Shown: positions 2 to 50,533, counted from the first letter of the stretch. The stretch: 64,000 nt of DNA from an uncultured Staphylococcaceae bacterium (GCA_964497235.1 CAZCCJ010000009.1:2701-66700); one strand, 5' to 3'. Program-made: numbers and translations. The notes: generated from the letters alone by a model not told the origin.

Positions 2-160
2 GAAAACAACCTCAAAAATAAGCTGCAGGCTTTTACCGAGGAGATGAAACCGAAAGAGCAGCTTAGACTTACGTTGATAACGCTTAATGGCTTAAAAGCA
101 AATGAGTATTCGGATATGGTTTTGTCGCAAATCGATGGCGATAAATTATTTGATTGCTGA
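2..160 (+). CDS. C-terminal fragment (window-truncated) of an ATP-binding protein, archaeal-ATPase/AAA-like family
   Basis: Manual translation from nt 2: ENNLKNKLQAFTEEMKPKEQLRLTLITLNGLKANEYSDMVLSQIDGDKLFDC*. It resembles the '...LTMITTYGL..NEYS..VQS.I..D.LF' tail of gut-bacterial AAA ATPases (recalled, not searched). Confidence 0.6.
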   Translation, partial: ENNLKNKLQAFTEEMKPKEQLRLTLITLNGLKANEYSDMVLSQIDGDKLFDC

Positions 161-2691: not shown

Positions 2692-2763
2692 ACGCTCGAT
2701 TATCGTTTTGATTGTGCTTCGTTTTCTATAAAACGATACCCCGATTTTATTCCAAAACCCATA

Positions 2764-2839
2764 TTGGAAAAATGGCAAAAATATCTAATTTTTTGTTGGA
2801 AAAATGGCAAAATTGCATTTTTTTCGCTTGGAAAAACGG
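2764..2839 (+). repeat. Three direct repeats with 32-bp period upstream of AAA ATPase
   Basis: ttggaaaaa(t/c)gg at 2764, 2796, 2828; the last copy lies in the -35 region of a TATAAT at 2849-2854. Confidence 0.85.
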
Positions 2840-2871
2840 ACATTAAGCTATAATATATGCAGTGGATAACT

Positions 2872-4224
2872 ATGTTATATAGAAAATTAAAAGAAAAGAT
2901 CAAAAATTGGATCAAAAACGGTACAAAACCAATGATGATCACTGGTGCAAGGCAGGTCGGCAAATCCTTCTTGATCAGAGAGACGCTCAAAGAGAGCGGC
3001 GTCGAGTATGTCGAATTAAATTTCATAAAAGACATATCGGCGAAGGAAATGTTCGAATCGTTGTTCAAAGATGGCCAAGCCTCTTTTAAATTGAAATTCA
3101 GCTTACTATGCAAACGAACGCTTCCGAAAGGCTCGATCGTTTTTCTTGATGAGGTGCAAGAAGTTAAGGAAGTGCTGACCGTTTTGAAATTTTTGGCCGA
3201 ACAAGGCGATTACCGTTATATTTTGAGCGGCTCGTTGCTGGGAGTGGAATTGACGAATTTGAGATCTGCTCCAGTTGGGTATTTGGAATCGTACGAGATG
3301 TATCCATTGGATCTCGAGGAGTTTTTCATCGCAAACGGCTTGACGAAAGAACTCATAGACTATTTAAAAGATAGATTCGAAAGTAAAGAGCCGGTCGACG
3401 AAACCATACACAAAACCCTGATGGATTCTTTCTATATGTATTTGGTCATCGGTGGCATGCCAGAAGCGGTGCAAACTTACGTCGACACACAAGACATGAA
3501 CAAAGTCATGAGCGTCCACAAAAACATAATCAACGAATACAAAAGGGATTTTACGAAATACGAGGAAAAATCCAAACTGAAGCTCATAAAAACTTACGAA
3601 CTTATTCCAAGCGAACTCGATTCAAAAAATAAAAGATATCAGCTGACAGATTTGGGCAAAAACACTAAGTTTGATAGATACGAGAATAGTTTCAATTGGC
3701 TTATAGATGCTGGAGTTGCCATACCGACTTATAACGTCACCGAATTTCAACTTCCGCTAGAGGCGAGTAAGAAAAGCAGCCTTTTTAAACTCTTTTTGTC
3801 CGACGTTGGACTATTGTCGTCGATGTACGGAAGGGCGACGATCGCCAAAATGCTGAATCGCGGAGAGAGTATAAATTGTGGTGCGATCTATGAGAATTTC
3901 ATCGCCCAAGAAATCAATGCTAGCGGCTTTAAGATGTACTATTTCAATAATAAAAAGCATGGCGAAGTCGATTTTCTTATAGAATACGATGAGAGCCTGC
4001 TTCCTATCGAAGTAAAATCCGGGAAGGACTACCAAGTCCATTCGGCGCTGACGTATTTCATGCAAACGCCATATTTTGATCGAGCCATAGTGTTCTCTAA
4101 TTACAATGTGTCAGTCAACGATAAAATCGTATACCTCCCGATTTATATGGCGATGTTTCTTAAGGACGTCTCGCCGATAGGAAAGATAGGCAAAATAGAT
4201 TTGTCTTCCTTAAAAATTCAGTGA
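2872..4224 (+). CDS. AAA_14-type ATPase with DUF4143 / PD-(D/E)xK-like C-terminus
   Basis: Walker A GARQVGKS, Walker B FLDEVQ, LSGS, IGGMPE, C-terminal EVDFL...PIEVKS. Start moved to ATG 2872 (MLYRK). Confidence 0.9.
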   Translation: MLYRKLKEKIKNWIKNGTKPMMITGARQVGKSFLIRETLKESGVEYVELNFIKDISAKEMFESLFKDGQASFKLKFSLLCKRTLPKGSIVFLDEVQEVKEVLTVLKFLAEQGDYRYILSGSLLGVELTNLRSAPVGYLESYEMYPLDLEEFFIANGLTKELIDYLKDRFESKEPVDETIHKTLMDSFYMYLVIGGMPEAVQTYVDTQDMNKVMSVHKNIINEYKRDFTKYEEKSKLKLIKTYELIPSELDSKNKRYQLTDLGKNTKFDRYENSFNWLIDAGVAIPTYNVTEFQLPLEASKKSSLFKLFLSDVGLLSSMYGRATIAKMLNRGESINCGAIYENFIAQEINASGFKMYYFNNKKHGEVDFLIEYDESLLPIEVKSGKDYQVHSALTYFMQTPYFDRAIVFSNYNVSVNDKIVYLPIYMAMFLKDVSPIGKIGKIDLSSLKIQ

Positions 4225-4356
4225 TAACGGCCACCTTTGATCTCGTATTGTTTCATAATATCTTTAAATTTTGCGATTTATAGCCAAAATTCGTTTCCCG
4301 CTTGCGCTTCGCTCGACGTTTTCTAGAATTTAGGTATTAGTGAGATAGGAGTTAGT

Positions 4357-5583
4357 ATGACCCAAGAAGATATGCGTTACGCGAAGAAGATCAAAGACTA
4401 TATTTTAAGCAGCTATAAGAACAATTTCCGTGAGCCTGTCGCCAACTTAAAGCATCCGTATCTTGTCCCAGGTGCCGCCTACAGGCATCAGCTATGGGAT
4501 TGGGACTCCTGGCTAACGGGGTTCGCATTGATGGGGATCAACGATCCTTCGATAGAGGAATACGAAAAAGGCTGCGTCCTTAACTTCCTCGATGCTCAAG
4601 ACGAGCAAGGGAGAATCCCCATTTTGGTTCAGGACACCCATTGGTGGCTATTCGCTTTAGATCCGAGGGTATTCACCAACATCCATAAGCCATGTTTGGC
4701 TCTTCATGCCGTCGAGATATCGAAACGTTATGGCGGTGCCGAGTGGCTGCGGGACGGATATCCGAAGATGCAAAAATTCATCGGATATTACGAGAAGCAC
4801 CAAAGAGATGATGAGACCGGACTATTTTTCCCAATCGATGATTTGGGATTAGGATTCGACAACGATCCAACGGCCTTTTATCGTCCGAAATGCTCTACAG
4901 CGACCATTTATATGAATTCCCTTATGCAAGCCGAATACCAAGCGATGTCCGATTTAGCGGCGATGCTAGGGTTATCGAACGAAGCAAAGGAATACGAAAC
5001 CAAATCGAAAGCCCTCGCCAAAGCCATCCATGACGAACTATTCGACACAAGGGACGGTTTCTTCTATAGCGCGGATATATCACTAAGGAAAGTCGATCCG
5101 AATGAATGGCTCCAAAGCGGGGCTCCGCGTAACTACCATTCCCTCCCGATGAGGATCGAAACGTGGGCCGGCATATTGCCTTTATGGAGCGGCATCGCCA
5201 CAAAGGAAGAGGCGAAAAGAGTGGTGGAAGAACATTATCTGAATCCGAACACTCTCTATAGCCCATATGGCATTCGTAGCGTCTCTAAAGCGGAGAAGAT
5301 GTTCCGGAACATCAAATCTGGCAATCCTTCCTGTTGGACGGGACCGATATGGATTAATGCCAATTATTTCACTTATATCGGGCTAAAGAACTATGGCTAT
5401 GACGATTTAGCCGAGGAGATGGCCCTAAAGACGATTAGGCTTCTTGGCAAGGACATCGATGAATGCGGCGAGTTCCATGAATATTACGATCCCGAGACCG
5501 GAGCGCCGCTAAATAACAAGGGATTCCAAAGCTGGAATTTCTTGGTTTTGTTGATGATCGACGACTTAGAGAAGAAAAAATAA
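4357..5583 (+). CDS. Trehalase-like (alpha/alpha)6 glycoside hydrolase (MGH1-like, GH63/GH37 neighbourhood)
   Basis: QLWDWDSW, GFDNDP, CWTGPIWINANY, FHEYYDPETG, FQSWN motifs; no signal peptide. Confidence 0.75.
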   Translation: MTQEDMRYAKKIKDYILSSYKNNFREPVANLKHPYLVPGAAYRHQLWDWDSWLTGFALMGINDPSIEEYEKGCVLNFLDAQDEQGRIPILVQDTHWWLFALDPRVFTNIHKPCLALHAVEISKRYGGAEWLRDGYPKMQKFIGYYEKHQRDDETGLFFPIDDLGLGFDNDPTAFYRPKCSTATIYMNSLMQAEYQAMSDLAAMLGLSNEAKEYETKSKALAKAIHDELFDTRDGFFYSADISLRKVDPNEWLQSGAPRNYHSLPMRIETWAGILPLWSGIATKEEAKRVVEEHYLNPNTLYSPYGIRSVSKAEKMFRNIKSGNPSCWTGPIWINANYFTYIGLKNYGYDDLAEEMALKTIRLLGKDIDECGEFHEYYDPETGAPLNNKGFQSWNFLVLLMIDDLEKKK

Positions 5584-5610
5584 AGGCGGAAAAGCATCAT
5601 TTGAATGATA

Positions 5611-5635
5611 AAAAGCCGTTAAATGCGGCTTTTTT
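5611..5635 (+). terminator. Intrinsic terminator after the GH gene
   Basis: aaaagccg-ttaaatg-cggctttttt. Confidence 0.7.
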
Positions 5636-5637
5636 AT

Positions 5638-5697
5638 GGAAAAAAACTACAATAAACCACGGAAAAAAACTACATTGGATGGCGGAAAAAAACTACA
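5638..5697 (+). repeat. Three identical 14-mers with 23-bp period
   Basis: ggaaaaaaactaca at 5638, 5661, 5684. Confidence 0.9.
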
Positions 5698-5762
5698 TTT
5701 TGTCAAAAATAATGGAAGGCCTAAGTTTTTTCCAAAATGGTTTTTTGAAAGCAAAAAATACA

Positions 5763-5818
5763 AATAAAGTGTTACTAACTTAAAATTTTTTGAGATAGTA
5801 ACACATAATCGCCTTTTT
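5763..5818. repeat. 56-bp direct repeat, left copy, with internal palindrome
   Basis: aataaagtgttactaacttaaaattttttgagatagtaacacataatcgccttttt; contains gtgttacta-N18-tagtaacac; one mismatch to 7096-7151. Confidence 0.95.
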
Positions 5819-5845
5819 AATATATAATTATTGAGGGAGAATGAC

Positions 5846-7072
5846 ATGTACATCAAAAGAAAAAGATATCTAGAACGCATTAGACCTTATTATGAATCGA
5901 ACTTGATCAAAGTCTTGACTGGCATAAGAAGATGCGGGAAAAGCATTCTCTTAAATCAGATAAAAGATGAGATAGTCGCCACGAAAGAGATCCCTGATAC
6001 GCATGTTATCTACATAAATTTTGAGGATTTGGCTTTCTCGAATATACATTCTTACCAAAGACTCAATTCTTATATCTTGAAAAGGATACGTGATGAGCGG
6101 AAGTATTACATCTTTTTGGATGAGATTCAGCATATCAAGCAGTTTGAGAAAGTCCTATCATCTTTGAAAGCGACCCAGAATGTCTCGATTTTCGTCACTG
6201 GAAGCAATTCAAAACTCCTTTCCGGAAGATTGGCCAGTTTGCTTGTGGGACGGTGCAAAGAGTTTAAGATAATGCCTTTCACTTATTCCGAATTCGTGGA
6301 GTATCACGAAGAAAACCATCTTCAACTTCCGACGAAGCCTCTTCTGAATTACTTAAGATGCGGTGGAATGCCGCAGAGGTTGGATTACGACGATGAGGAA
6401 GACATCAAAGAATATCTGAAGTCCGTTTTTTATGGAATCATTGACAAGGATATTTGCGCACCGAGCTCAAGAATAAAAAAAGAAACATTCCTCACTTTGT
6501 CCAAATATATTATCGAAAACGTCGGAAAGGAATTCTCATCCGAGAATGTGGTTTCCTTCTATAACCATAACAACAAAGACGGCGACATATACAAAGAGAA
6601 TGTTTACCGCTGCTTGGAAAAGATGGAAGAAGCGTGCCTCATTTCGCGCGTCAAAAGATACGACGTGCCGTCAAAAAGGACGCTTAAAAAAATCGAAAAG
6701 CAGTATGCGATTGACAACGGTTTTGTTTTGGCTTGTTCGGACACCAACAAGGTCTTCGTCTCTCATATATTGGAAAATGTCATATATAACGAACTCATTT
6801 TTAGGGGATATGACGTAAAAATCGGGAAAACATATAAAGGCGAGATTGATTTCGTGGCGATGAAAAATGGCAAGAAATGCTTTATCCAAGTTGCGTATGT
6901 TTTATCCGATGAAACGGTTTTGGAAAGGGAGATGTCTTCTTTTGCATCATTAAAAGACCCTTCTCCGAAATACATAATGAGCCTTGATGATTTTGATATG
7001 TCTCGAGATGGCGTCATTCATTTGAACGCTGAGGATTTTTTGCTAGGAAAAGCGGATATTTCGATAAGCTGA
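5846..7072 (+). CDS. AAA_14/DUF4143 ATPase
   Basis: GIRRCGKS, FLDEIQ, VTGSNS, GGMP, LENVIYNEL, EIDFV...IQVAY. Start moved to ATG 5846. Confidence 0.9.
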   Translation: MYIKRKRYLERIRPYYESNLIKVLTGIRRCGKSILLNQIKDEIVATKEIPDTHVIYINFEDLAFSNIHSYQRLNSYILKRIRDERKYYIFLDEIQHIKQFEKVLSSLKATQNVSIFVTGSNSKLLSGRLASLLVGRCKEFKIMPFTYSEFVEYHEENHLQLPTKPLLNYLRCGGMPQRLDYDDEEDIKEYLKSVFYGIIDKDICAPSSRIKKETFLTLSKYIIENVGKEFSSENVVSFYNHNNKDGDIYKENVYRCLEKMEEACLISRVKRYDVPSKRTLKKIEKQYAIDNGFVLACSDTNKVFVSHILENVIYNELIFRGYDVKIGKTYKGEIDFVAMKNGKKCFIQVAYVLSDETVLEREMSSFASLKDPSPKYIMSLDDFDMSRDGVIHLNAEDFLLGKADISIS

Positions 7073-7095
7073 AGAATCGTTCTTAATTGAAGTTC

Positions 7096-7151
7096 AATAA
7101 AGTGTTACTAACTTAAAATTTTTCGAGATAGTAACACATAATCGCCTTTTT
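7096..7151. repeat. 56-bp direct repeat, right copy
   Basis: 55/56 identical to 5763-5818; begins 24 bp after the ATPase stop. Confidence 0.95.
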
Positions 7152-7226
7152 TTGTTTATATATCGGAATTTTCGTTCTACCTAATTAAATAAAAGATACA
7201 AAAATAAAAAAATGTTTCAAAAGTGC

Positions 7227-7255
7227 TTGACACAATATACATAGGTGCATACAAT
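7227..7255 (+). promoter_or_regulatory. Sigma-A promoter for the 538-aa gene
   Basis: TTGACA (7227-7232), 17 bp, TACAAT (7250-7255); ggagg RBS before ATG 7312. Confidence 0.8.
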
Positions 7256-7311
7256 GTAGCCATGGAAAGATACAAAACAAGCAAAAATGTATCTTCCAGG
7301 AGGTAACAAAA

Positions 7312-8928
7312 ATGAAAAAACACTTGATTGGATTATCGGCCTTGGCGATCTTGGCTGGCGGATGCGCTGCCAAAATGCCTAGTTCCTCTAATGAGGACAT
7401 AATCAGAGTCGATATGAGCGTCAATAGCCCATCTTACAAGCTAGAGGCTGATAATGTTGAGCTCGATTGGCTCTCACAGTCAATACTCGATAAGGGCACG
7501 GAATTCTTGAAATCGGGGATTTCCACTTTGGCCCTTTATACCTTCAAGACGGCGTGTATGGAAATGGGAATCGACGTCCGTGACGCGACGACTAAGAAAA
7601 TAGATCAGATACTTTCTCAGCTCAACCAAATCGAAGTCGAGCTTAAGGAAGGCTTCGAGAGCTTGACCAAGAAGGCACAGCAAGTCCAAGACACCGACAC
7701 CATGAATAAGATCTTGGCTAGGATAAACGAAGTCAAATCGCCGATTCTCGCCGAGATGAAGGTTCTTGAGGCCATCGCCGAGAAAGAGGACGCCGGAGTC
7801 GATCAAGAGACGATCGACAAAGAGAAAGCGGAGTTCATCAACGCCTTCCCGACGAACCTTAACTTCTATGGCCTTAGCAATAAGGTGTGGCACTCGACCG
7901 AGCTTCTTGCTCAGCAATTCACCTCTCCTAACTCGGTGAAGACGAGCCAAACCTTGATGGAGCTATATGACAACACCTTAGGCGCAAACGACATCTGGGA
8001 TTACCAAAGCTATGCCCCGAGGATGAACTTCGTCAAAGAGTGCGCCTTCCTTATCAACTCCATGGCGCTTCTTGGAAAGATCGAGGCGGCCAATGAGATC
8101 AGCAAATACGCTCCAGGGGATTCGAATATCGAGGGCATCAAGACGGCGGTTGAGCAGATGTGCGCGGCCGTCAACACCGTTAACGGCGTCTTCCAAAAGG
8201 AGCTCCAGAAGCTCTATACCATCAAGCAGAATCACGACGATCCGGAACGCCCGACGATGTCGCATTTGAAGAGAACCTTCGATAGCAGCGGCTATGTCCA
8301 CGTCACCACCGATTATACGGTGTCCGCTTACATCGCGACGATCGGACTTAATAACGTCGTTTGGAAGAATACGGTAGACGACTTCTATAACGATGGGACG
8401 AGCCATTGCTTCAAGACTTACGTCGCAAGCACCGACTTCTACTCGATGCTCTATAGCGACTACTCCTTCTACGTGAATAATTACAAGGTCGATGAAGACT
8501 ATAACCTCAAGTACTACTTAAGGGATCTTGGCTTCAGGATACCGGATGGCAAGCAAGACGACTTCGACGAAGCCATTGGTATCTATAAGAACATCGATGT
8601 GAGAAGGGAAGACAGAGGCTTCTTAAGGGGAGTCGACTACTACGCCCGTTATAACTACTACGATTGGAATGGCAAGCTCTCGAGCAAAGACTATTGCCGA
8701 GTGGGCGAGACGTTCTGGAAGCATTACGACGATGAATCGCTCTACCAGGATGCCATCAACAAAAAGATGATCGCCTTCATGAATGCCGATAATGCGACGT
8801 TAAACGGTGGCGTCACCTGGACCATTGCCCATCGTGATAGCAGCGATACTTCTGAACTCATCAACCACTTCTACATGGGTGACTCATATAACTACGGCAC
8901 AACCGCAAGATATAGCATCCATTGGTAA
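7312..8928 (+). CDS. Secreted lipoprotein of unknown function with long helical/coiled-coil N-half (toxin-like); paralogue of 10700-12340
   Basis: Lipobox LAGGC; GIDVRDATTKKIDQILSQLNQIEVELKE; Tyr/Asp-rich C-half. Confidence 0.7.
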   Translation: MKKHLIGLSALAILAGGCAAKMPSSSNEDIIRVDMSVNSPSYKLEADNVELDWLSQSILDKGTEFLKSGISTLALYTFKTACMEMGIDVRDATTKKIDQILSQLNQIEVELKEGFESLTKKAQQVQDTDTMNKILARINEVKSPILAEMKVLEAIAEKEDAGVDQETIDKEKAEFINAFPTNLNFYGLSNKVWHSTELLAQQFTSPNSVKTSQTLMELYDNTLGANDIWDYQSYAPRMNFVKECAFLINSMALLGKIEAANEISKYAPGDSNIEGIKTAVEQMCAAVNTVNGVFQKELQKLYTIKQNHDDPERPTMSHLKRTFDSSGYVHVTTDYTVSAYIATIGLNNVVWKNTVDDFYNDGTSHCFKTYVASTDFYSMLYSDYSFYVNNYKVDEDYNLKYYLRDLGFRIPDGKQDDFDEAIGIYKNIDVRREDRGFLRGVDYYARYNYYDWNGKLSSKDYCRVGETFWKHYDDESLYQDAINKKMIAFMNADNATLNGGVTWTIAHRDSSDTSELINHFYMGDSYNYGTTARYSIHW

Positions 8929-8987
8929 GACGATAAAAACTTCGGGGGTGCTTCTAAAGGGCGCTCCCGGAAACCTCCTATCTATAG

Positions 8988-9014
8988 CCCCTGCTTAAAC
9001 GGCAGGGGTTTTTC
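8988..9014 (+). terminator. Intrinsic terminator
   Basis: cccctgc-ttaaacg-gcagggg-tttttt. Confidence 0.8.
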
Positions 9015-9351
9015 GTTGAAGAAAAATGCAAATATTGCAAAAATCTTCAGTGAATGTGCATTGGCAACTTGGAATTAAACATTTTATGTGGTCGAAATGC
9101 GGACAAGAGTTCGAATAAGATTCTCTATGACGAAGAATGGAATCATTACCAATTTTAAAACGACAAAGCTTTTATTGATATTATGGTATTTTATTATGAA
9201 GTTTTATCTTAAAGATCGAAATTGATATACGAATGTAAGTAAGGCAAATATGTTTTCATTTCATCGGTGAAATAAGCTTTATGCTTTATCGATTTATAAG
9301 CAGACTCTTTCGTCCGTTTGATTTGCTGCATAAGTACTATCGAGAGGCGCT

Positions 9352-19499: not shown

Positions 19500-19582
19500 T
19501 GTTGTCTTTGATTTCGAGGCACATAACCGACTTAATGGCCGTGATATAATCAAAGATAGAGACCGTTTGCGAGGGGAAGAAT

Positions 19583-22189
19583 ATGAAAAAAGATCTAAGG
19601 CTCATCTATAAAGAAGAAGCCCCGAATTCCTTAGAAGGGTGGGAGAAATATTCGCTTCCTATTGGGAATGGCCGCTTCGGCGCATCGATTTTCGGAGGCG
19701 TCCATCCTGAGAGGATACAAATCACGACGAATGAGTTCGCAAACGACTATTCGCGCGGCGGCGTCAGCAACTTCATGGAGATCCATTTGGATTTCATGAC
19801 CAAAGAAATAAGCGACTATGAGAGGGGGCTCCGTTTAAAAGACGGCGTCGTCTATTCCTCTTTCAAGGAAAATGGCTGCGATATCAAGAGAAAATGCTTC
19901 TATTCATACCCAGATAAGGCGCTCGTGTATCATATTTCGTCCTCCAAACCCATCTCCTTTAAAGCCAAACTCGTAATCTCATATTTAGGCTCTAGAAGCG
20001 TGGAAGACGGAGGAAGAGTCGGGAAAGTCGATTTTGAAGACGGGTATTTGACCGCGCGAGGGTCTTTGCCCTTCCGTTCCCTTCTTTTCGACGCCCGTTT
20101 GAGCCTTAAGAGCGATGGCAAAATCGAAAAAGAGGGCGATTCGTATGCGGTAAACGATGCGAAAGAAACAACTTTGGTCTTCGTCGCCGCGACTTCCTAT
20201 CGACTAATCAAAGAAACATTCTATGCCGAGAAAGCGTTAGGCGATGATCCGAAAAAAGAAGTCCTAGAAACGATGAAAACTGCTTCGGCGCTATCTTATT
20301 ATGAATTATACCAACGGCATTTCGACGACTATTCGTCCCTCATGGGCAGGGTTGATTTCTCTTTGAGCGATGTTTCGGATAAGCGTTCCGTTCCTGAACT
20401 CATCGAAGCCTATCGAAATGACGAGGACGCTTCCTATTTGGAAGAGCTTTATTTCTTCTTCGGAAGGCATTTGTTGATTTCCTCTTCTCGCAAAGGGGGG
20501 TTGCCCGCTTCCTTGCAAGGCGTATGGACGGCGCACGACAAATCGCCTTGGGGAAGCGGCTTTTGGCATAACATCAATATTCAGATGAATTATTGGCCCG
20601 CGTTCAGCACGAATCTCGCTGAAACCTTTGACGCCTATATTGATTTCTTTGAGGCATATTTGCCTAAAGCGAGCGATAACGCGGCCGAGTGGATTGAGGA
20701 CAATTTTGGAAAAAAGCCTGCAAAAGGGGCATGGATCATCGGGACAGGCGCTTTCGCATATCAAGTGGAAGGGATGTCGCAGAACACCCATTCCGGACCT
20801 GGAACGGGAGGCATGACCGCTCAATTATTCATGGATGCTTACGAATTCACGCAAGACGAAAAGCTCTTAAAAGGCGCAGCCTATAAAGCCATTCACGGTT
20901 TGGCTGCTTTCTTGGTTTCCTGCGTTAAAGATTACGATGGAACGTATCTTTGCTCTTATAGCGCTTCTCCTGAGCAGATTCTATCGGGACATTGGGAAAA
21001 CGACGCCAAGGAACAGCAGTATTACCACACGATCGGATGCGCATTCGATGAGCAATGGCTAGAGCAAAACGCTCGCAACGATTTGGCAATTAACTCGATT
21101 TTAAAAGAGAAAGATGAAGTTACTAAAGCAGAAACCCTGCAAATCGGCCATTATTCGCCTGTTGAGATTGGATATTCGGGGCAAATAAAGGAATATGGCG
21201 AAGAACATTTCTATGGAGAGATCGGCGAATATTGCCATCGCCATATCTCGGAATTGGTTGGATTAATGCCAGGGAATATCATCACCAATGAGACTCCGGC
21301 ATGGCTAGATGCGGCGAAAGTCACTTTGGAATATCGCGGCGATAAATCAACCGGCTGGGCTCTTGCCCATCGCCTATGCGCCTGGGCCAGAACAGGAGAA
21401 GGGGAGCACGCGTATAAACTCCTTCAAACGATGCTAAAAGAGAAGACGCACCCCAATCTTTGGGATGTCCATCCTCCTTTCCAAATTGACGGCAATTTCG
21501 GGGCGCTAGCTGGGATGGCGGAGATGCTACTTCAAAGCCACGAAGGGTATATATCGTTATTGCCCGCATTGCCGAAGAAATGGGGGAATGTCTCCTTTAA
21601 AGGTCTTAAAGCGAGGGGCAATTTCGAAGTCTCCCTTTCGCTTAAAGATGGGAGAATCGATACATTGTCGGTTGTTTCTTTATCGGGGAAGGATCTCAAG
21701 GTTTATTTCCCAGGCTTCACTCCGAAAACCAAGGTATTTGATGGAGATATGGAGATAGGGCATTCATTCGATTCCTCGATGATTTCCTTTAAGACAGAGG
21801 AAGGCCATGAATATCGCTTCTTTGGCATCATGAAAGCAAAAGAAAAGAACATTCCGGAATCCTTTGGCGCCGCTTATGGACCTGATGGTGTTCATCTGAT
21901 TTGGAAGAGCGAAGTTCCGGTCGCTTTATTTAGGGCTGTCGATAACGATGAGCATTATCAGGAAATAGGGTGTTTCGAAAAGGATGGCTCGTTTGTGGAC
22001 GAGACGTTTAACGCTTCCAAACTCGGAAGGGCTACATACAAACTTGTCGATGCTTCTAACGGGTATTCGGAGAAGGACAAAGGAAAGCTCGCTTTCATAA
22101 GCCCCGCCTCGAAACTAGAAGAGGAACGGTATCGGATGAAACTCAAGGTCAACAATCTCACAGCCGAGAAAATAGGCTGGGATTTTTGA
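19583..22189 (+). CDS. GH95 alpha-L-fucosidase / alpha-L-galactosidase
   Basis: SLPIGNGRFGA, LQGVW, NINIQMNYW, HRHISEL.GL.PG, STGWA, HPPFQIDGNFG..AG..EMLLQSH. Confidence 0.93.
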   Translation: MKKDLRLIYKEEAPNSLEGWEKYSLPIGNGRFGASIFGGVHPERIQITTNEFANDYSRGGVSNFMEIHLDFMTKEISDYERGLRLKDGVVYSSFKENGCDIKRKCFYSYPDKALVYHISSSKPISFKAKLVISYLGSRSVEDGGRVGKVDFEDGYLTARGSLPFRSLLFDARLSLKSDGKIEKEGDSYAVNDAKETTLVFVAATSYRLIKETFYAEKALGDDPKKEVLETMKTASALSYYELYQRHFDDYSSLMGRVDFSLSDVSDKRSVPELIEAYRNDEDASYLEELYFFFGRHLLISSSRKGGLPASLQGVWTAHDKSPWGSGFWHNINIQMNYWPAFSTNLAETFDAYIDFFEAYLPKASDNAAEWIEDNFGKKPAKGAWIIGTGAFAYQVEGMSQNTHSGPGTGGMTAQLFMDAYEFTQDEKLLKGAAYKAIHGLAAFLVSCVKDYDGTYLCSYSASPEQILSGHWENDAKEQQYYHTIGCAFDEQWLEQNARNDLAINSILKEKDEVTKAETLQIGHYSPVEIGYSGQIKEYGEEHFYGEIGEYCHRHISELVGLMPGNIITNETPAWLDAAKVTLEYRGDKSTGWALAHRLCAWARTGEGEHAYKLLQTMLKEKTHPNLWDVHPPFQIDGNFGALAGMAEMLLQSHEGYISLLPALPKKWGNVSFKGLKARGNFEVSLSLKDGRIDTLSVVSLSGKDLKVYFPGFTPKTKVFDGDMEIGHSFDSSMISFKTEEGHEYRFFGIMKAKEKNIPESFGAAYGPDGVHLIWKSEVPVALFRAVDNDEHYQEIGCFEKDGSFVDETFNASKLGRATYKLVDASNGYSEKDKGKLAFISPASKLEEERYRMKLKVNNLTAEKIGWDF

Positions 22190-22250
22190 CGGATTGCTTT
22201 TTCGCTGGGCGCCTAAAGCGGCATAAGAAGATAGGCTTACAAGATGGCGG

Positions 22251-23480
22251 CTAAAAAAGCTTGCCATCTCGCATGAATTCCATGAGATTCTCGTTTTTTA
22301 TGCCGTCTTTTTTCTGTAACAAGAAGTCAGTGGTCAATAGATATTTTGGATAGTTGTCTTTGATAGAAAGAAGCGAGCGATACTCTCTTTCCATGGTGTT
22401 CGTATCCGATGCGATGGTGTAGGCCACTTGCACATAGGAATAGTCGAGATTTAAATCGCGGAGAACAAAGTCGCATTCCAATTTGCCTATTTTGCCGACA
22501 TAAGCTTCATATCCTTTCGATCTCGCGTAAATGTAGACGATATTTTCTAAGCACGGACCATAGGCGGAGATGTTATTTGGGTCAGTCAGGAAAGTGAATG
22601 AGAGGTCGGAGAGATAGTATTTCTTTTCGCCCCTCAGAGAGCGTTTTGATTTGAGATCGAAATTCTGGCATGGATAGATGATTTTGGCGTCCTCCAGCGC
22701 TTGGATGTATCTCATCAAGGTGGATTCCTTTATCTTGAGTCCTCCTTCTTCGAGCCCTTTTAGGATATTCCGTTTGCTTGTGGGTCTGGAAAAGTTGTTG
22801 ATCATGTAGCGCATGACGACATCAAAACTGTCGCATTTTCTTATTTTGATTCGACGATAAATGTCTTTCTTGAGTATTTCATCCGTAAGAGCCTTCACGT
22901 AGGTTCTTTTTGCGCCTAGGCTCGGAAGAAGGACTGTCTCCGGGAATCCCCCTTCCTGCAGGTAGTTTCTTAGCTCCGTGGCGAGATCAAGGCCGATTGG
23001 CATATGGTAAAATCCCTTCATTTGTAGGTATTCTTCGAAATTGAGGGGATAGACTTCGAATTCGATATAGCGACCTGTAAGCTTCGTCATAAGCTCGCCC
23101 GAGAGAAGATAGGAGTTGCTGCCAGTGAGAAAAATCGAGTAATCCCCTTCTTCGCGATAGGCATTGACGACTTCTTCATATCCCTTCACGTTTTGAATTT
23201 CGTCGAGGAAAAGATATTTCGTTCCTTTCACATTGGCTTTACTATCGATAAGGCGTTCCAATTGATCGGCGGTTTTGATATTACGCATCCCTTTTGCGTC
23301 TAAATTCAAAAAGCAAATATTGCTTTCTTTTACCCCTTTTTCTTGCAACTCATCAGCGATAAGACGCATGATTGAAGACTTGCCTGAGCGCCTGACGCCC
23401 GTGATTACTTTGATGAGATCGTTAATATGATAGAAATTGCGGATTTTCGAAAGATAGTTTTCACGTTTGAATAATAGCAT
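22251..23480 (-). CDS. AAA_14/DUF4143 ATPase
   Basis: Start moved to ATG 23480 (MLLFKRENY); GVRRSGKS, FLDEIQ, LTGSNS, GGFP, LENIV, ECDFV...VQVAY. Confidence 0.9.
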   Translation of the reverse strand: MLLFKRENYLSKIRNFYHINDLIKVITGVRRSGKSSIMRLIADELQEKGVKESNICFLNLDAKGMRNIKTADQLERLIDSKANVKGTKYLFLDEIQNVKGYEEVVNAYREEGDYSIFLTGSNSYLLSGELMTKLTGRYIEFEVYPLNFEEYLQMKGFYHMPIGLDLATELRNYLQEGGFPETVLLPSLGAKRTYVKALTDEILKKDIYRRIKIRKCDSFDVVMRYMINNFSRPTSKRNILKGLEEGGLKIKESTLMRYIQALEDAKIIYPCQNFDLKSKRSLRGEKKYYLSDLSFTFLTDPNNISAYGPCLENIVYIYARSKGYEAYVGKIGKLECDFVLRDLNLDYSYVQVAYTIASDTNTMEREYRSLLSIKDNYPKYLLTTDFLLQKKDGIKNENLMEFMRDGKLF

Positions 23481-23531
23481 AAATTGTTTTTCCTCGATTT
23501 TATTATAGTTGACTGCGTTGCTAAAAACAGG

Positions 23532-23581
23532 AGTTAAAGGGGGGTAATTTGATAAAAATGCGAAGTTGACCCCCTTTAACT
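23532..23581. repeat. Inverted repeat upstream of the AAA ATPase
   Basis: agttaaaggggggtaa-N18-ttgaccccctttaact (outer 12 bp perfect). Confidence 0.85.
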
Positions 23582-23708
23582 GGCATTTTTGTGCTGAATA
23601 GCAGATAGTCCTTCTCCTTAGTTTCCATAGCAGATTGCCCGTGCCCATCGTTGGCGATCGGACTGCCCACATAAAATGTTTGATGCGTCTATCTTTAGGC
23701 CGCCAGTG

Positions 23709-23770
23709 CAAATTGCTCATTTAAAATTCCTCAAACTGCTTATTTGAAACTTGTCAAATCGCTCATTTAA
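23709..23770 (+). repeat. Three imperfect direct repeats with 23-bp period
   Basis: caaattgctcattta (23709), caaactgcttatttg (23732), caaatcgctcattta (23755). Confidence 0.75.
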
Positions 23771-23771
23771 C

Positions 23772-24036
23772 GTAAAAGAGCCTATAAGAAGATTTCCTAG
23801 GTTGTTTGATGAGCAGTTGAAATTTTATTTATGAAGCGTGGGGCCATCGTGATTGTGGGTCCTAAATTTTATGGAGAAGTCGGCCATAATTTGGCGGTGA
23901 GAAAATTGATTAAATTTGCTGCCGCCATTGACGAATATAAGGCCAAACCGGCATGTAATGATTATTACGAAGAATAAGTTTGCGTATAGAAGACAAGATG
24001 GCGTGTGTTGTTCCGCTGATGCGTTTAAAAAAGTTT
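23772..24036 (+). pseudogene. Miniature remnant of an AAA_14/DUF4143 gene: N-terminus fused to C-terminus
   Basis: Manual translation across frameshifts: PRLFDEQLKFYL / GAIVIVGPKFYG, then RKLIKFAAAID / MIITKNKFAYRRQDGV / VVPLMRLK. These match both ends of the 9352-10534 gene (PRIFDQILDFSL..GAVIVVGPKWCG; MIVAKNKIAKRREDGVYVVPLACLR). Confidence 0.8.
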
Positions 24037-24114
24037 AGGTTTCGCCGCGAGGACGTTAAAAATCAATGCTTTTTAAGCAATATGAAGACTGATCGTTGTT
24101 TTTCAATACGTGTT

Positions 24115-42738: not shown

Positions 42739-44175
42739 CTAGTCTATATGGTCAGCCAAATATATAAGACGCCCTTTTCTTGGCTTGCCGTTGTCTTTTA
42801 TGTATCGCAAGAGAAACAGTTCGTTTACGTCCTTTTTTACTGAACTTAGCGATTCGTCGATTTCAGCGGCGATGGCGGGCACGCTTATGCCTTCGGGATG
42901 CAAAACTAGGCAAGAGAGAATTTTGTTTTTTCTACTAGACGACGAACTGCTAGAGGCGGTTGGCGTAAATAGGAGAGTTAACTTTGTAAAACGCCCGTCC
43001 GAAGTGGTTTCTAAGATTGGATCGGGATATTTGTTCTTTTTCATGACGGAAGCGATGGTTGGAATGCCGAAGCCTGAGCGTTCCGCCAAATTGAGCGCGC
43101 GGAAAAAGGTCATTATCGAGGAATTCCTGACGATGGATACGCCGCCTCTTAAGGCTTGATCTTTGTCTACCAACATATCGCCGCTGTTTCGGAAACTTAT
43201 GCGATCCGGATAGGCTTGAACGAGGGTTCCGCCATCTATGAGCATGGACATATTCGTCAGCGAATTTATGAGCGCTTCGGAAACGGCATCGTAAATGGAG
43301 CTGCCATCATCATTAGCTCCGTTTTGTTCTCTTCGGAAAGCATTGGGAAGCCTGTCCTTTAAGGAACCCATGACTTTCAAATAAAAGGAAAATATGTTGC
43401 CACTAAAGGAAAAGTCATCGCTCGCGACCCTTTCCTCCCAACGTTCTTTCCCGTTCGCGTATCTTTGATAATCCAAGTGGAAAGATGGAAATAGCCTTAC
43501 GATATCGGCATATTGCCCAAAGAAGGCGATTGCGCCGTTAGTCAAAGCGCAGTTTTTATTGTTGTCATAGATTAAGGCGCCGATTCTTTCAAGCAATTGT
43601 TCATCGTTAAGTTCCAAAAGAGGGCTATTAGGCCGGTTATTGGCCAAAAGCGTGCGGAAATCACGCAGCGTGTCTTTGTCTAGCCGTTCAATCCCTAAAC
43701 CAAACGAATTGGGTTTGCCATCGAAATGAGTCAGCTCTTTGTCTTCCAAAAACGAAAGAATCTGGTTTTTACTCATCCTTTGATCGGCCTCTCCTAGACG
43801 AAGGTACGATTGATCGAGAATCCCGTTTATATAGACGGGCCTTTCCGGCAATGGAGCTTTTTTCACATGGATTCTGATGACGTTTCCATCGTTTGTCTCG
43901 ATTAGTTCCACGTCTTTGTCGCTTATTAGATTGCAACTGCATTTAGATTTGTTTTGCACGGCTTTGATGAAGTTGGCAACCTGTTGTTTTGGGTTATCAA
44001 CGCCGACGATTTTATGTGGCGAATCGTTGCTGATGCCCAAATATATGTCGCCACCATCCGTATTCGCGAAAGCGGAATACGTTTCGAATAGGGAATCCGA
44101 CAAATTCTTTTTTGAAGCTTTGAATTCAAGATGGAGACCTTCTTCTTGTTTCAGTATATCGGAAATATTCGTCAT
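42739..44175 (-). CDS. AlbA_2 (Schlafen-like) + HATPase_c_4 (RecG-C-like) + C-terminal wHTH protein
   Basis: LEFKAS..LFETYSAFANTDGGDIYLG; EALIN..; RN..I...F..L.LAERSGFG; C-terminal HTH. Confidence 0.85.
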   Translation of the reverse strand: MTNISDILKQEEGLHLEFKASKKNLSDSLFETYSAFANTDGGDIYLGISNDSPHKIVGVDNPKQQVANFIKAVQNKSKCSCNLISDKDVELIETNDGNVIRIHVKKAPLPERPVYINGILDQSYLRLGEADQRMSKNQILSFLEDKELTHFDGKPNSFGLGIERLDKDTLRDFRTLLANNRPNSPLLELNDEQLLERIGALIYDNNKNCALTNGAIAFFGQYADIVRLFPSFHLDYQRYANGKERWEERVASDDFSFSGNIFSFYLKVMGSLKDRLPNAFRREQNGANDDGSSIYDAVSEALINSLTNMSMLIDGGTLVQAYPDRISFRNSGDMLVDKDQALRGGVSIVRNSSIMTFFRALNLAERSGFGIPTIASVMKKNKYPDPILETTSDGRFTKLTLLFTPTASSSSSSSRKNKILSCLVLHPEGISVPAIAAEIDESLSSVKKDVNELFLLRYIKDNGKPRKGRLIYLADHID

Positions 44176-44202
44176 AATTCGCCCCCCAGAACTATCATAG
44201 CA

Positions 44203-44258
44203 TATTTCGTCAACTTTTGAATTATTTCGTCAACTTTTGAATTATTTCGTCAACTTTT
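44203..44258 (-). repeat. Tandem repeat, 20 bp x ~3, overlapping the promoter of the AlbA_2 gene
   Basis: tatttcgtcaacttttgaat repeated; minus-strand TTCAAA-17-TATGAT (extended TG) overlaps it. Confidence 0.9.
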
Positions 44259-46874: not shown

Positions 46875-48092
46875 ATGGATAAAGTGTCGAAATACATCAA
46901 AGAGAATTGGACTAAGACCTTTCACCCGGCAAGCGAGCTGGCGGGGGAAGTGAAAATAAACCATCCCTATGTCTCGCCCTGCGCGACCGAGCACTACACG
47001 GAGATGTTCTACTGGGACACTTATTTCATCAACATCGGCTTGATGCTTGATGGCTACGCCGAGCAGGCGAGAAACAACATAGACAACATCGCCCAGTTCA
47101 TAAATGCGCTTGGCTTCATGCCCAACGCGAATTACATCTTGGATAGATCCCAGCCTCCGTTTTTCACCCGCATGGTCTATGAGTATTACAAAAAGACGGG
47201 CGACATGTCGATTGTTCGCGACTACATCGCGACGATTCTGAAGGAATATGACTTTTGGCAGACGAAGAGGAAGAACGCGATCGGCTTAAATTCCTACGGC
47301 ACGCACGGCAGCAAAGAGGAGATATTGGCCAACTACTCTTGGCATCATGGCAGGGTCCTTGAAGAAAGCGATAACGAAGAAGACCAGATTCGCATCGGCA
47401 AAGACATCATGGCGATCGCCGAAAGCGGGCTTGATTTCAATATGCGTTTCAAGACAAAAGAGAGCAAAATAGACGCGCATAAGTTCTCCCATCTGGATCT
47501 GGATTGCTTGCTTTACGACATGGAGAGGAAGACCGCGGAACTACTAAGGCTACTTGGCCGCGATGATGAGGCGGATGCTTTTGATGGCAATGCCGCCAAG
47601 CGCAAAGAGCTGATGAACAGGTACTATCTCACGAAAGATGGGATCTATCTTGACTACAACATGGAAACGGGCGGGCATTCCGAAGTTCTTTCTGCGGTGT
47701 CGCTTTATCCCTATACTTTCGGGGTTTCGAACGATAAAGAAGGAGCGATCAAGGTTTTGAATAGGCTTGAGCTCGAATATGGGCTTTCCGCTTGCGAGAA
47801 GCGTGAGGACACCGTGTTCTACCAATGGGACTACCATTACATGTGGCCGGCGGCGACTTGCCTCGCTTATATGGGGCTTAAAAACATCGGCCTTGATGAT
47901 GACGCGAAGCGCATCGCGACCAAATACGTTAATGTCGCCAGAAAGATATTCAGCGAAACGGGTAGGCTTTGGGAAAAGTACGATGCCTTGACGGGTGAAA
48001 TCGCCGTGACGAGCGAATACGCCACGATGCCGATGATGGGCTGGACCGCGGCCGTTTACCGTTATTTCGTGGAAATGGAAGGGATCGATTGA
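46875..48092 (+). CDS. GH37 alpha,alpha-trehalase-like (cytoplasmic)
   Basis: EMFYWDTYF, RSQPP, AESGLDF, QWD, LWEKYD, MMGWTAAV. Confidence 0.85.
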   Translation: MDKVSKYIKENWTKTFHPASELAGEVKINHPYVSPCATEHYTEMFYWDTYFINIGLMLDGYAEQARNNIDNIAQFINALGFMPNANYILDRSQPPFFTRMVYEYYKKTGDMSIVRDYIATILKEYDFWQTKRKNAIGLNSYGTHGSKEEILANYSWHHGRVLEESDNEEDQIRIGKDIMAIAESGLDFNMRFKTKESKIDAHKFSHLDLDCLLYDMERKTAELLRLLGRDDEADAFDGNAAKRKELMNRYYLTKDGIYLDYNMETGGHSEVLSAVSLYPYTFGVSNDKEGAIKVLNRLELEYGLSACEKREDTVFYQWDYHYMWPAATCLAYMGLKNIGLDDDAKRIATKYVNVARKIFSETGRLWEKYDALTGEIAVTSEYATMPMMGWTAAVYRYFVEMEGID

Positions 48093-48258
48093 TCTTTGCT
48101 TTAAACATAGACGAGGTAAAAAACGTTTTAGAAAATTGATGATGAACATACATGAATTTCTAACGGCCTGATCGCATAAGCATTCAGCTTAAGCTTATAT
48201 ATTTTTATCATTCGACATTCAAAAAGCCCGGTCGATGAAAGTCGGGCGTTTCAACGAG

Positions 48259-48281
48259 TGGTGCGGGCAATATGGCTCGAA
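48259..48281 (-). other. tRNA 3'-end-like fragment (putative att scar), followed by a terminator at 48221-48251
   Basis: Minus strand TTCGAGC-CATAT-TGCCCGC-A-CCA is in T-loop/T-stem/acceptor/discriminator/CCA register; no matching 5' tRNA half upstream. Confidence 0.5.
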
Positions 48282-48629
48282 TTTGCATGGAGTTGCCCAA
48301 TAGATCCCTAAGGATAAAGCACTGAGTTGAAAAGGGCTGCAAAACCCGCCGTTTCCCTGCAAAATGAGCGGTTTTGCTGAAACTGAACAAAGTTGTCCGC
48401 AGCATTTTTTGACATATAAGAAAAGGGGCGACCTCATATCTCTTCTTGATTTCTAAAAACGCCGCCGCGGCCCCGATAAGGAGACCTGAGATGAAAGGCA
48501 ATAGATATAAGAAGGATTTCTTGAAGGCCTTTCTTGAAGAAGGGGCGCTCCCGCTTTCGTTAATGAAAAGGACCAGAGTCTCTATTTATCCCCGCAAAAG
48601 TCGGCTTTTTTCTTGAAACGATGCTGCGA

Positions 48630-49532
48630 TCAGTCTTCCAGGATAGGCAATGCACCGAAATGGGACACGGCCTTGGCCCCATCCGCGTTGGCTTTGATTA
48701 GGATGCTCTCGTAGTCGACGACGCTTAAAGACATGAGATCCCCAACGGAGTCTAATTCCAAAAGGACGCGCGCGTAGAAGGCGTCGCCCGCTCCAGTCGT
48801 GTCGACGGGCTTCACGGAATGGGAAGAGACTTTTAAAGAGCCGTCGCGGGTAACGACCGCGCTGCCCTTGCTTCCATAGCTTACGAAGAGCAGGGATTTC
48901 CTCTTGAGCCTTTCCTTATGGAAGGCTTCCGCGTCCTCTTTCCCACAAAAGAAGCTGAGTTCGTCTTCGCTGAGTTTAAGCACGTCTACCATAGGGAAGA
49001 GCTTTCCATAGATTTCTTTCGTCTCTTCCTCGTCGCGGAAAATGTCTAAGCGGAGATTCGCGTCGAAGGAGACGAAAGCCCCTACTTTATGGCAATAGGA
49101 GATCGCTTTTCTTAAGAAGGACCTGCCTTCTTTCTTCGAGAGCAGCAAGGACCCAAAATGGACGAAATCCCCGGCCTTTATCCCTAGCGAATGGAGTCTG
49201 TCCTCGTCAAGGAGGTAATCCGCTCCAGGGGAGCGGAGGAAGCGGAAGGAGCGTTCCCCATTGTCTATAGTGACCACGGCCAAAGTGGTGTTCGCGCTTT
49301 TGCTTCTATCGAGGATCAGCCTTTTCAAAGGGTAGCGGGAGGCTTCTTTCGCGGCGAAATCGCCGAATTGGTCATCGCCAAGCACGCCATAAAAGGAGGA
49401 ATACCCACCATTCACGGCGATGTTCGCGGCGACGTTGAAAGGCGCCCCTCCTAGCTTCGCGTTTAGCTCTAAAGAATGGGATTTGTCCTCCCCGAACATG
49501 TCTAGAAGTATCTCTCCGATGCAATGAACCAT
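48630..49532 (-). CDS. scrK: PfkB-family sugar kinase, probably fructokinase
   Basis: IGEILLD, GGAPFNVA, FDANLR, VDTTGAGDAF; last gene of the fructan operon. Start at ATG 49532. Confidence 0.85.
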   Translation of the reverse strand: MVHCIGEILLDMFGEDKSHSLELNAKLGGAPFNVAANIAVNGGYSSFYGVLGDDQFGDFAAKEASRYPLKRLILDRSKSANTTLAVVTIDNGERSFRFLRSPGADYLLDEDRLHSLGIKAGDFVHFGSLLLSKKEGRSFLRKAISYCHKVGAFVSFDANLRLDIFRDEEETKEIYGKLFPMVDVLKLSEDELSFFCGKEDAEAFHKERLKRKSLLFVSYGSKGSAVVTRDGSLKVSSHSVKPVDTTGAGDAFYARVLLELDSVGDLMSLSVVDYESILIKANADGAKAVSHFGALPILED

Positions 49533-50532: not shown

Positions 50533-50533
50533 G

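Follow-up and report, generated by a model that had tools for sequence, protein, structure and literature searches.

Promoter-embedded repeats that follow protein sub-family in the PDC-S01 ATPase genes: predicted operators for self-regulation

In a stretch of 64,000 nucleotides (nt) from an uncultured Staphylococcaceae bacterium (hereafter the window; coordinates are counted from its first letter), genes and gene remnants for AAA_14/DUF4143 ATPases of the defence candidate PDC-S01 lie beside short repeats. Comparison with related loci shows that the geometry of these elements is set by the sub-family of the adjoining gene, being a direct-repeat array with a period of 32-33 base pairs (bp), an array with a period of 23 bp, or a palindrome. 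The core sequences change with the protein clade, and the elements accompany the gene across unrelated contexts and phyla. On these comparisons we consider it somewhat better than an even bet that the repeats are cognate operators, lying in the gene's own promoter, through which the product of the adjoining gene would cooperatively regulate itself.

PDC-S01, an ATPase fused to a PD-(D/E)xK domain, is reported as the fourth commonest defence candidate in prokaryotes (PMC12988326). The designation, for 'phage defence candidate', comes from guilt-by-embedding (bioRxiv 10.1101/2024.01.29.577857); validation as a defence system is pending, and surveys count tens of thousands of copies of the family, COG1373 (PMC12988326, PMC13356809). 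DUF4143 stands among the PD-(D/E)xK families to which no function is assigned (PMC3424549). Three window genes, A, B and D, are intact (Table 1): each matches Pfam AAA_14 and DUF4143 above the gathering score and, over its full length, PADLOC profile hidden Markov models for PDC-S01, which a fragment of pseudogene C also matches. We call relatives of A (model PDLC04792) A-type and those of C and E (PDLC04790) C-type, while B and D define a B/D-type (PDLC04787). In C, Pfam recognizes DUF4143 alone, on 9352-10032, and tblastn with intact relatives covers 10519-9355 in several frames; many database members of its sub-clade are truncated. The relic E retains ~40 N-terminal and ~27 C-terminal residues, with an internal deletion and a frameshift, and is seen by tblastn as pieces at 23793-23893 and 23955-24020 (E 0.003-0.02). 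Its frameshift (window 23820-23835) falls at the same codon as the in-frame TAG (~1440) of an unrelated C-type locus, L167, after ..KFYL and ..DFYL, respectively, and just ahead of the P-loop strand. At the left edge of the window lies the end of a 474-residue gene of a related AAA+ family without DUF4143.

Tandem Repeats Finder (TRF) reports six arrays of period 20-35 and score of at least 75 in the window, with 0.00 expected from fifty order-2 Markov simulations; five of the six fall in the 3.8 kb of intergenic DNA, where 0.002 would be expected. Four arrays had been pointed out in the original prediction, and TRF reproduces every one of them at its place, the genes and remnants also being where they had been put. 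The arrays at 12815 and 44203, the unit at 2722, the 56-bp repeat of B and the palindrome of D had escaped it. The pairing of arrays with genes that it proposed is upheld for A and C, but the array at 23709 is that of E and not of D, and the one at 5638 is probably not B's. The units of C's closest relatives read, in sense orientation, CTTCCGATTTAAAA (L168) and ACTTGCGGTTTAA (L167); since the third array (at 10570), which in C's sense reads CTTCCTATTTA, and the fourth (at 23709), which in E's sense reads TGCTCATTTAAAA, both match these units, they belong to C and E. The unit of E also fits the AACTTsCnnTTTAAAA of both relatives. The third array was also considered as an orphan pointing away from C; this was ruled out, L168 having the same CTTCCnATTTA core in sense. 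In gene sense, a TTGACT sits between units 2 and 3 of C's array.

The array at 5638 is probably a C-type-like orphan rather than B's own element, because B has its own palindrome, B-type genes elsewhere lack arrays and no relic adjoins. It is followed by a -35-like TTGTCA without a -10 box. The core CACCGAATGGAAAAT of the array at 12815 agrees with C-type units, for instance the ones in L150, and no promoter or gene follows; we read it as an orphan C-type array. A search with tblastn found no gene relic beside either array. The two 56-bp copies around B are 98% identical and in direct orientation, with no further copy in the 64 kb, and the arms of D's palindrome recur nowhere else in the window. 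For the 474-residue gene, complete in the sister-strain contig L081, the promoter region there (4100-4346) carries two palindromes AATTCCCTAAAA-N16-TTTTAGGGAATT, one ~85 nt upstream of the other, the second ending at the ribosome-binding site. Within the window, then, the elements of A, B, C, D, E and the 474-residue gene are all distinct. Upstream of A's main array stands one unit of a second array; a reading of it as the main unit inverted was dropped, with just 9 nt matching. Rfam gave no match at gathering score anywhere in the window.

To place these arrays in the wider family we compared four sets of related loci or contigs, denoted here by L-numbers: 80 loci from GTDB genomes, retrieved with an alignment of A, B and D; 80 metagenome loci, retrieved with two C-type proteins; an independent set of 36 viral-contig loci, retrieved with an A-type alignment; and loci of closely related strains and of orthologues, which came from exact-protein look-ups. 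Open reading frames of the GTDB and metagenome sets were typed by phmmer against the window proteins. Between -250 and +100 relative to the start, 84 of 182 family genes have a TRF array of period 18-45, as do 33 of 652 other genes, counted only where their upstream region is clear of any family gene's (odds ratio 16, p 3e-37). The excess is present in every GC stratum (18/30 vs 14/77, 19/38 vs 9/84, 26/48 vs 6/134 and 21/50 vs 1/215), and a high AT content of the upstream DNA therefore does not by itself explain the repeats. The position is also strongly one-sided: A- and C-type cores number 179 sites upstream of genes against 1 in the 300 bp downstream. The original prediction had proposed looking for a common period upstream of related genes, for an excess over other AT-rich genes and for repeat sequences that follow protein clade, and all three are found, the recurrent periods being 33 bp in the A-type and 23 bp in the C-type. 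Its statement that each gene has a different repeat sequence is right for the window; across the family the cores are specific to clades and drift gradually. Likewise, the largely conserved geometry that it noted is fixed within a sub-family and does not extend to the B/D-type, which has palindromes in place of arrays.

A-type genes have 2-4 units, 32-33 bp apart, upstream. Identity over the full period was too strict a detector for them, as only ~12-14 of 33 nt are conserved, and we used a lag test instead, seeking 14-mers repeated at 12 or more of 14 positions at lags of 18 to 50. The best lag was 32-34 bp in 27 of the 33 upstream regions with a repeated 14-mer (controls, 7.7/127), and was 33 bp in 26 of 28 distinct A-type regions of the viral-contig set. 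The layout is seen in Bacillota, Saccharibacteria, Chlamydiae, Actinomycetota and Proteobacteria, commonly as core(TTGAAAAGTCA)-17/18 nt-TATAAT-4 nt-core-ribosome-binding site. The core itself holds a -35-like hexamer (TTGAAA) and the next core lies over the predicted transcription start, an arrangement that would account for the 33-bp period. In the window, where A's cores are 32 bp apart, TATAAT (2849-2854) comes after the third core (2828-2839), 17 nt ahead of the ATG at 2872. A consensus promoter scanner misses this promoter because its spacer is 15 nt. The cores drift slowly: TTGGAAAAATGG in the window compares with TTGGAAAAATGA in L001 (50% identical), TTGAAAAGTGT(G) in many Bacillota and Pasteurellaceae, and AAAAGTGT in Acinetobacter. 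A (T)TGAAAAAGTGT-like core recurs from Bacillota to Pasteurellaceae and Acinetobacter, and the cores of Chlamydiae and other Proteobacteria are quite different.

In the C-type, an array is present in 56 of 68 distinct upstream regions, with 2.0-8.0 copies, and in 53 of the 56 its period is 23 bp. A promoter TTGnnn-16..18-TAnnnT is found in 59/63 distinct upstream regions, 47-121 nt (median 59) ahead of the ATG. When the regions are aligned on the -35 hexamer, the mean identity between each base and the one 23 nt before it is 0.71 for positions -60..-1, compared with 0.27-0.32 at lags of 19, 21, 25 and 27. This lag-23 identity peaks at -18..-7 and -41..-24 relative to the hexamer, which argues that the proximal core stands in a fixed register, ending a few bases ahead of TTGACA; the observed distance to the consensus hexamer is 1-4 nt. 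In 23 of 59 regions the spacer between the -35 and -10 boxes holds one more core. L104 is a typical example (..CACGGAATgaaaTTGACAaatatCACGGAATggtaTAAAAT..). Cores differ by protein clade, as in CACGGAAT, CTCCGATTGA, GACCGGATGAAAG, CACTGAATGG and GTGCGGAATAG, and again in GTTGCAGGATAA, GGGTGGATGAAA, CACCGAATAGAA and GCTAAATGCACAA. In L168, array and promoter are kept although the P-loop has been lost.

B/D-type genes mostly lack a tandem array and have instead a private palindrome at the promoter, abutting the -35 box or overlapping it. An inverted-repeat score of at least 11 is reached by 16 of 44, against 50 of 706 controls (Fisher p 1.3e-7, Mann-Whitney p 2.6e-10), and in L010, L067 and L078 a consensus TTGACA-17-TATAAT directly adjoins the palindrome. 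In the B clade the gene is bracketed by repeats of 41-56 bp in 8/8 loci examined, namely window B and seven orthologue loci (69-77% protein identity; Table 1). In these seven, one palindrome lies ~40-85 nt ahead of the ATG and another within 6 nt of the stop codon. The copies are 90-98% alike within a locus, loop included, and differ between loci, so that they evolve in concert. More generally, a flanking-repeat score of at least 18 is found for 11 of 93 family genes and 3 of 360 other genes. In L081, 1.3 kb (12778-14075) is inserted exactly after B's 3' repeat (window 7152/7153); the insertion contains two open reading frames (222 and 116 residues) with no Pfam match and is bounded by ATAATCGCCTTTTTT and ATTATCGCCATTTTTT, a 15-bp imperfect repeat. 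In L169, between guaA and hxlR, an 18-bp direct repeat GCTACCATTTTGCYACCA (~3880 and ~5415), possibly a duplicated target or an attachment site, flanks the whole palindrome-gene-palindrome unit plus 190 bp. The sequence ATAATCGCCTTTTT was tried as a recurrent recombination core and set aside, its 3 matches in the window being no significant excess over the 1.4 expected. Directly upstream of the B-type gene of L015 a tRNA-like sequence (~7330-7410) was noticed, read by eye only.

Five contigs of near-identical strains (98-99.6% nucleotide identity) have the gene order of the window with differing numbers of units. For the second array upstream of A the count is 1 in the window, L082 and L085, 2 in L081 and L083, and 3 in L084; at 5638 the window has 3 units where L081 and L083 have 2; and at 12815 it has 4.1 where L081 has 2.1. 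The proteins P0264 and P0267 are encoded between guaA and hxlR in the 14 places listed, from different metagenome samples, and a check of the mobility of P0264, by the exact protein on many contigs, found one shared context in all places listed. B-type orthologues at 69-77% identity occupy unrelated contexts. In the paralogue clusters of L012, L007, L008, L038 and L185, a different element stands ahead of each gene. Since the core sequence depends on the protein clade, cross-talk between paralogues of one genome would not be expected.

Table 1. Family genes, remnants and repeat elements of the window, and loci with a B-clade bracket
Feature	Position	Strand	Details
ATPase_2/AAA_14 gene, 3' end	2-160	+	full gene 474 residues, complete in sister-strain contigs L081 and L082
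Single unit of second 33-bp array, upstream of A	2722-2753	+	sequence unlike main array
A-type array	2764-2839	+	TRF 2764-2836, 32 bp x 2.3, 83% matches; cores TTGGAAAAATGG / TTGGAAAAATGG / TTGGAAAAACGG
Gene A, AAA_14+DUF4143, intact	2872-4224	+	Pfam; PADLOC PDC-S01 model PDLC04792, 3e-171
23-bp array	5638-5706	+	GGAAAAAAACTACA.. x 2.7; TRF 5638-5699, 84% matches
B, 5' copy of 56-bp repeat	5763-5818	+	palindrome GTGTTACTAAC-N14-GATAGTAACAC at 5769-5804; ends 27 nt ahead of ATG
Gene B, AAA_14+DUF4143, intact	5846-7072	+	Pfam; PADLOC PDC-S01 model PDLC04787, 1e-124
B, 3' copy of 56-bp repeat	7096-7151	+	palindrome 7102-7137; begins 24 nt past stop codon
Pseudogene C, C-type AAA_14/DUF4143, frameshifted	9352-10534	-	open reading frames; PADLOC model PDLC04790, fragment 4e-22
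23-bp array of C	10570-10626	-	TRF 10570-10624, x 2.4, 93% matches; sense reading TCTTCCTATTTATTTTT..
Array read as orphan C-type	12815-12909	+	TCGCAAAACACCGAATGGAAAAT x 4.1; TRF score 183, 23 bp, 97% matches
Gene D, AAA_14+DUF4143, intact	22251-23480	-	Pfam; PADLOC PDC-S01 model PDLC04787, 2e-132; alignment
Palindrome of D	23532-23581	-	AGTTAAAGGGGG-N26-CCCCCTTTAACT; 52-101 nt ahead of ATG, just upstream of TATAAT
23-bp array of E	23709-23770	+	AAAYTGCTCATTTAAAA.. x 2.7; TRF, 74% matches
Relic E of C-type gene	~23751-24038	+	open reading frames; tblastn pieces only
20-bp array	44203-44258		x 2.8, 100% matches; TRF; upstream of SLFN_AlbA_2/HATPase_c_4 gene
B bracket	L012		
B bracket	L015		5'/3' match in inverted orientation
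B bracket	L169 and L181		between guaA and hxlR
B bracket	L179		beside rplK/rplA
B bracket	L180		beside SNF2 helicase gene and AlbA_2 gene
B bracket	L185		in cluster of three family genes and a Fic gene

The proteins themselves resemble DNA-binding ATPases, some of them with the catalytic residues of a nuclease. Walker A (GxxxxGKS/T) and Walker B (hhhhDE(I/V)Q) are invariant. In the nuclease motif D..ExK of the A-type, D367 and K382 are invariant among 63 homologues and E380 is present in at least 90%; C-type proteins keep E..D..ExK. B/D-type proteins have IQVAY in place of ExK (among 120 B homologues Q never varies, and V is kept in 119, as is A) and are probably not nucleases, since the ExK motif is replaced by QVA. 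For A, an AlphaFold2 model based on 63 sequences reaches a predicted local distance difference score (pLDDT) of 83 and a predicted template-modelling score (pTM) of 0.85. Its best PDB matches in Foldseek are the archaeal AAA+/winged-helix ATPases SSO1545 (2fna, E 4e-8, template-modelling (TM) score 0.43/0.52) and PABY2304 (2qen), at probability 1.0 over ~390 columns with TM scores of 0.40-0.52, a match that does not delimit the winged helix residue by residue. Lesser matches are to ORC/Cdc6 and DnaA (both at TM 0.2-0.3), RFC, MuB and TnsC. The modelled fold thus resembles that of DNA-binding initiators or the 'arch ATPase' type, and its C-terminal alpha-beta-beta-beta-alpha-beta part holds the nuclease motif. 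A search of PDB sequences with A found nothing and NCBIfam has no applicable model; Pfam scans of the family and of neighbouring open reading frames found no transposase, integrase or Rep domain.

Under the operator reading, the AAA+/winged-helix protein would bind the repeats ahead of its own gene and so set the level of its own transcription. Binding would be cooperative, most likely head-to-tail and with ATP; regulation would be mainly repression; and derepression would accompany the activity of the protein, presumably in defence. The gene's own product is proposed as the reader because the period is fixed, the units are specific to sub-families, they travel with the gene, and no other factor is common to the hosts. 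Repression is suggested by near-consensus -35 and -10 boxes with cores at -35 and +1 in the A-type or in the spacer in the C-type. Apart from this position within the promoter, we count in favour of the reading that a family member in Thermus thermophilus is inducible, rising 6.6-fold upon entry of plasmid DNA (PMC4406477). Of the two functions offered in the original prediction, autoregulation of a toxic nuclease or defence protein is thus the one preferred, with the reservation that 'toxic nuclease' does not fit the B/D-type, where the ExK motif has been replaced.

Several observations weigh on the other side. The proximal core of the C-type, at ~-47 from the start site, is also in a classic position for an activator. 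The A-type core is conserved across phyla and includes a -35-like hexamer; its reader could be RNA polymerase or some factor of the host. Orphan arrays (5638, 12815) persist and vary in copy number without a gene, and arrays are retained at pseudogenes. Simple occlusion of the promoter does not account for the 3' copy at B-type genes. An entropy profile of 60 C-type proteins has no single hypervariable segment that might read the DNA. Finally, significant clustering of the conserved columns into a core is limited to 5 of 12 A-type and 11 of 62 C-type arrays, many arrays consisting of near-identical recent copies.

Some of these points could be accommodated if the repeats were read by RNA polymerase, as multiple -35-like boxes or UP-like elements, or by a host regulator, and marked a promoter type of horizontally acquired genes. 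The TTGAAA of the A-type core, alike in distant phyla, and the survival of arrays at pseudogenes and as orphans would be natural consequences, yet period and core type follow the protein sub-family and not the host. Side-by-side A-, B- and C-type genes differ in their elements (L012, L007, L008 and the window), C-type cores differ by clade among similar gut Bacillota, and the variable cores are unlike sigma-70 elements, RNA polymerase being the sole factor common to Chlamydiae, Saccharibacteria, Actinomycetota and Bacillota. We regard this reading as quite unlikely. The near-perfect copies in many arrays, and the variation of copy number between near-identical strains, might be taken for functionless slippage in AT-rich intergenic DNA. 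This is contradicted by the comparative sequence data: the six arrays of the window far exceed the simulated expectation, the enrichment holds in AT-matched strata, periods of 33 or 23 bp are kept where the sequences have diverged beyond recognition, and the register with the -35 and -10 boxes is fixed. We hold this reading to be very improbable.

The protein may also be imagined to use the arrays for more than gene regulation. They could be a resting platform on which an inactive ATPase-nuclease oligomer is stored until infection or foreign DNA sets it free or switches it on, with control of the gene as a by-product. Arrays of up to 8 units, more than promoter occlusion needs, the rigid period across phyla, the initiator-like AAA+ fold and the retention of nuclease catalytic residues in the A- and C-types of a family that is itself a defence candidate are consistent with such storage. 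No sequence feature, however, separates it from plain autoregulation, the B/D-types have no catalytic motif and the defence role of PDC-S01 is still that of a candidate; we think a storage role unlikely. A one-gene mobile cassette that excises or integrates through the repeats, as its cis ends or as recombination sites, is distinctly improbable, the notion being essentially confined to the B-clade bracket. There it gains from the constancy of the bracket and the concerted evolution of its copies, the excess of flanking repeats, the unrelated contexts of B orthologues, the insertion in L081 exactly at B's 3' repeat, the outer 18-bp repeat in L169, and relics and orphan arrays being common. Against it, no empty site or excised form was seen in the loci compared, window genes stay at the same place in 5 strains and P0264 and P0267 keep one context in the places listed, transposase and integrase domains are absent, the B-type lacks a nuclease motif, and B's palindrome is not dispersed. 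For A- and C-type genes, where the original prediction had envisaged the array as the cis end of a self-mobilizing unit, the idea fails, since the cores are 5' only and synteny is kept within species.

The gene family and its candidate status are known, and so are autoregulatory operators and iterons as kinds of element. In iteron plasmids a Rep protein binds direct repeats of 17-23 bp adjoining its autoregulated rep gene. C-type arrays are similar in that 3-8 direct repeats at 23 bp overlap the promoter of a gene for a winged-helix protein, and only in this type are there at least three direct repeats of 17-23 bp with a period of ~22 bp. The differences are that an AAA+ ATPase-nuclease takes the place of a Rep_3-type initiator, that the genes are single and chromosomal, and that the A-type period is 33 bp. 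More broadly, DnaA, archaeal Orc1/Cdc6, plasmid Rep proteins and MalT bind direct-repeat arrays by or in promoters and autoregulate or oligomerize there. DnaA and Orc1/Cdc6 are AAA+ initiators that bind DnaA boxes or origin recognition box (ORB) elements beside their own genes. They share with PDC-S01 head-to-tail arrays of sites adjoining the gene and structural neighbourhood, and ATP-dependent oligomerization would be expected in both; they are set apart by the low TM scores of 0.2-0.3, the additional C-terminal nuclease fold, the many paralogues with private sites and the lack of a tie to replication.

MalT multimerizes on direct-repeat MalT boxes. The closest structural matches of the A model, SSO1545 and PABY2304, link the family to the arch ATPases (PF01637) and the regulators among the signal transduction ATPases with numerous domains (STAND), and IniR, which has an SSO1545-like ATPase, binds a promoter (PMC5760070). 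Both MalT and IniR act on other operons, by way of a separate LuxR-type helix-turn-helix (HTH) and a sensor domain, whereas here the target is predicted to be the protein's own gene and the protein ends in a nuclease fold. The B-clade bracket recalls the REPtron in having a gene flanked by two copies of a private palindrome. In REPtrons, the gene of a transposase associated with repetitive extragenic palindromes (a RAYT) is flanked, in inverted arrangement, by its cognate palindromes (REPs), which are dispersed in tens to hundreds. The window, unlike such genomes, has two copies only in 64 kb, in direct orientation, and no Y1 transposase. Other defence loci have a separate autorepressor, a WYL/HTH regulator such as CapW or BrxR. 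There, as would be the case here, an operator in the promoter of the defence gene holds expression low until a trigger; the predicted differences are that the effector itself would contain the DNA-binding module and that the operators are multi-unit direct repeats of rigid period.

Other features of the window and its relatives deserve mention. The family genes are AT-rich, as had been noted from spot counts, the effect being modest but real: GC is 0.402 in A, 0.388 in B, 0.418 in C and 0.424 in D, against 0.45-0.50 in the adjoining cargo, the glycoside-hydrolase and other genes that separate them. GC rises to 0.52-0.55 over 48000-64000 from 0.44 in the first 25 kb, and the ATPase-rich left part of the window looks distinct in composition. 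Three open reading frames between the ATPase genes, at 313-2691, 7312-8928 and 10700-12340 (792, 538 and 546 residues), have no Pfam or NCBIfam match. Repeats also stand ahead of genes outside the family. The SLFN_AlbA_2 plus HATPase_c_4 gene (42739-44258, minus strand) has a perfect 20-bp direct repeat, ATTCAAAAGTTGACGAAATA in gene sense, x2.8, ending 27 nt ahead of its ATG. The other three AlbA_2 genes seen have private repeats just upstream (L007 5451, GAATGTCGGTTT x4; L012 1927, TTGCAACGA motifs on both sides; L180 4541). Fic plus HTH_17 genes beside C-type genes (L130 4936-5826; L154 4943-6040) have a 20-bp repeat ATTATTCCGATAAACGTGAT x2.2, ~30 nt ahead of the start. Taken with the palindromes of the ATPase_2 gene, these hint at self-contained, self-regulated single-gene modules in defence islands.

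In the open-access and bioRxiv literature on PDC-S01, which gives its prevalence, we found no experiment, function, ligand or cis element described, although description elsewhere is possible; 'AAA_14' returned only irrelevant matches. The promoter-embedded, clade-specific 33- and 23-bp arrays, with periods set by sub-family, and the catalytically dead branch with palindromes bracketing the gene 5' and 3' were not found described there. A more ambitious picture, which we offer as speculation with little expectation that all of it holds, is that PDC-S01 proteins are sequence-programmed AAA+ machines assembling on private arrays of rigid spacing, each array being at once operator and a self-address for parking and release of an immune ATPase-nuclease, and that the dead B/D branch, by the same recognition, brackets its gene with two identical sites as a looped, self-insulated and possibly excisable cassette.

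The practical consequences follow from the elements themselves. Orphan arrays mark lost genes and may thus help annotation, and the arrays are a possible source of orthogonal pairs of promoter and regulator. Cultured carriers of family genes include Acinetobacter baumannii, Glaesserella parasuis and Vescimonas fastidiosa. For the family as a whole, the cis rule provides a division into 33-bp, 23-bp and palindrome or bracket classes, with the nuclease active or dead, and the conserved cis element supplies a predicted DNA ligand for each protein, which would be the first concrete experimental handle on PDC-S01.

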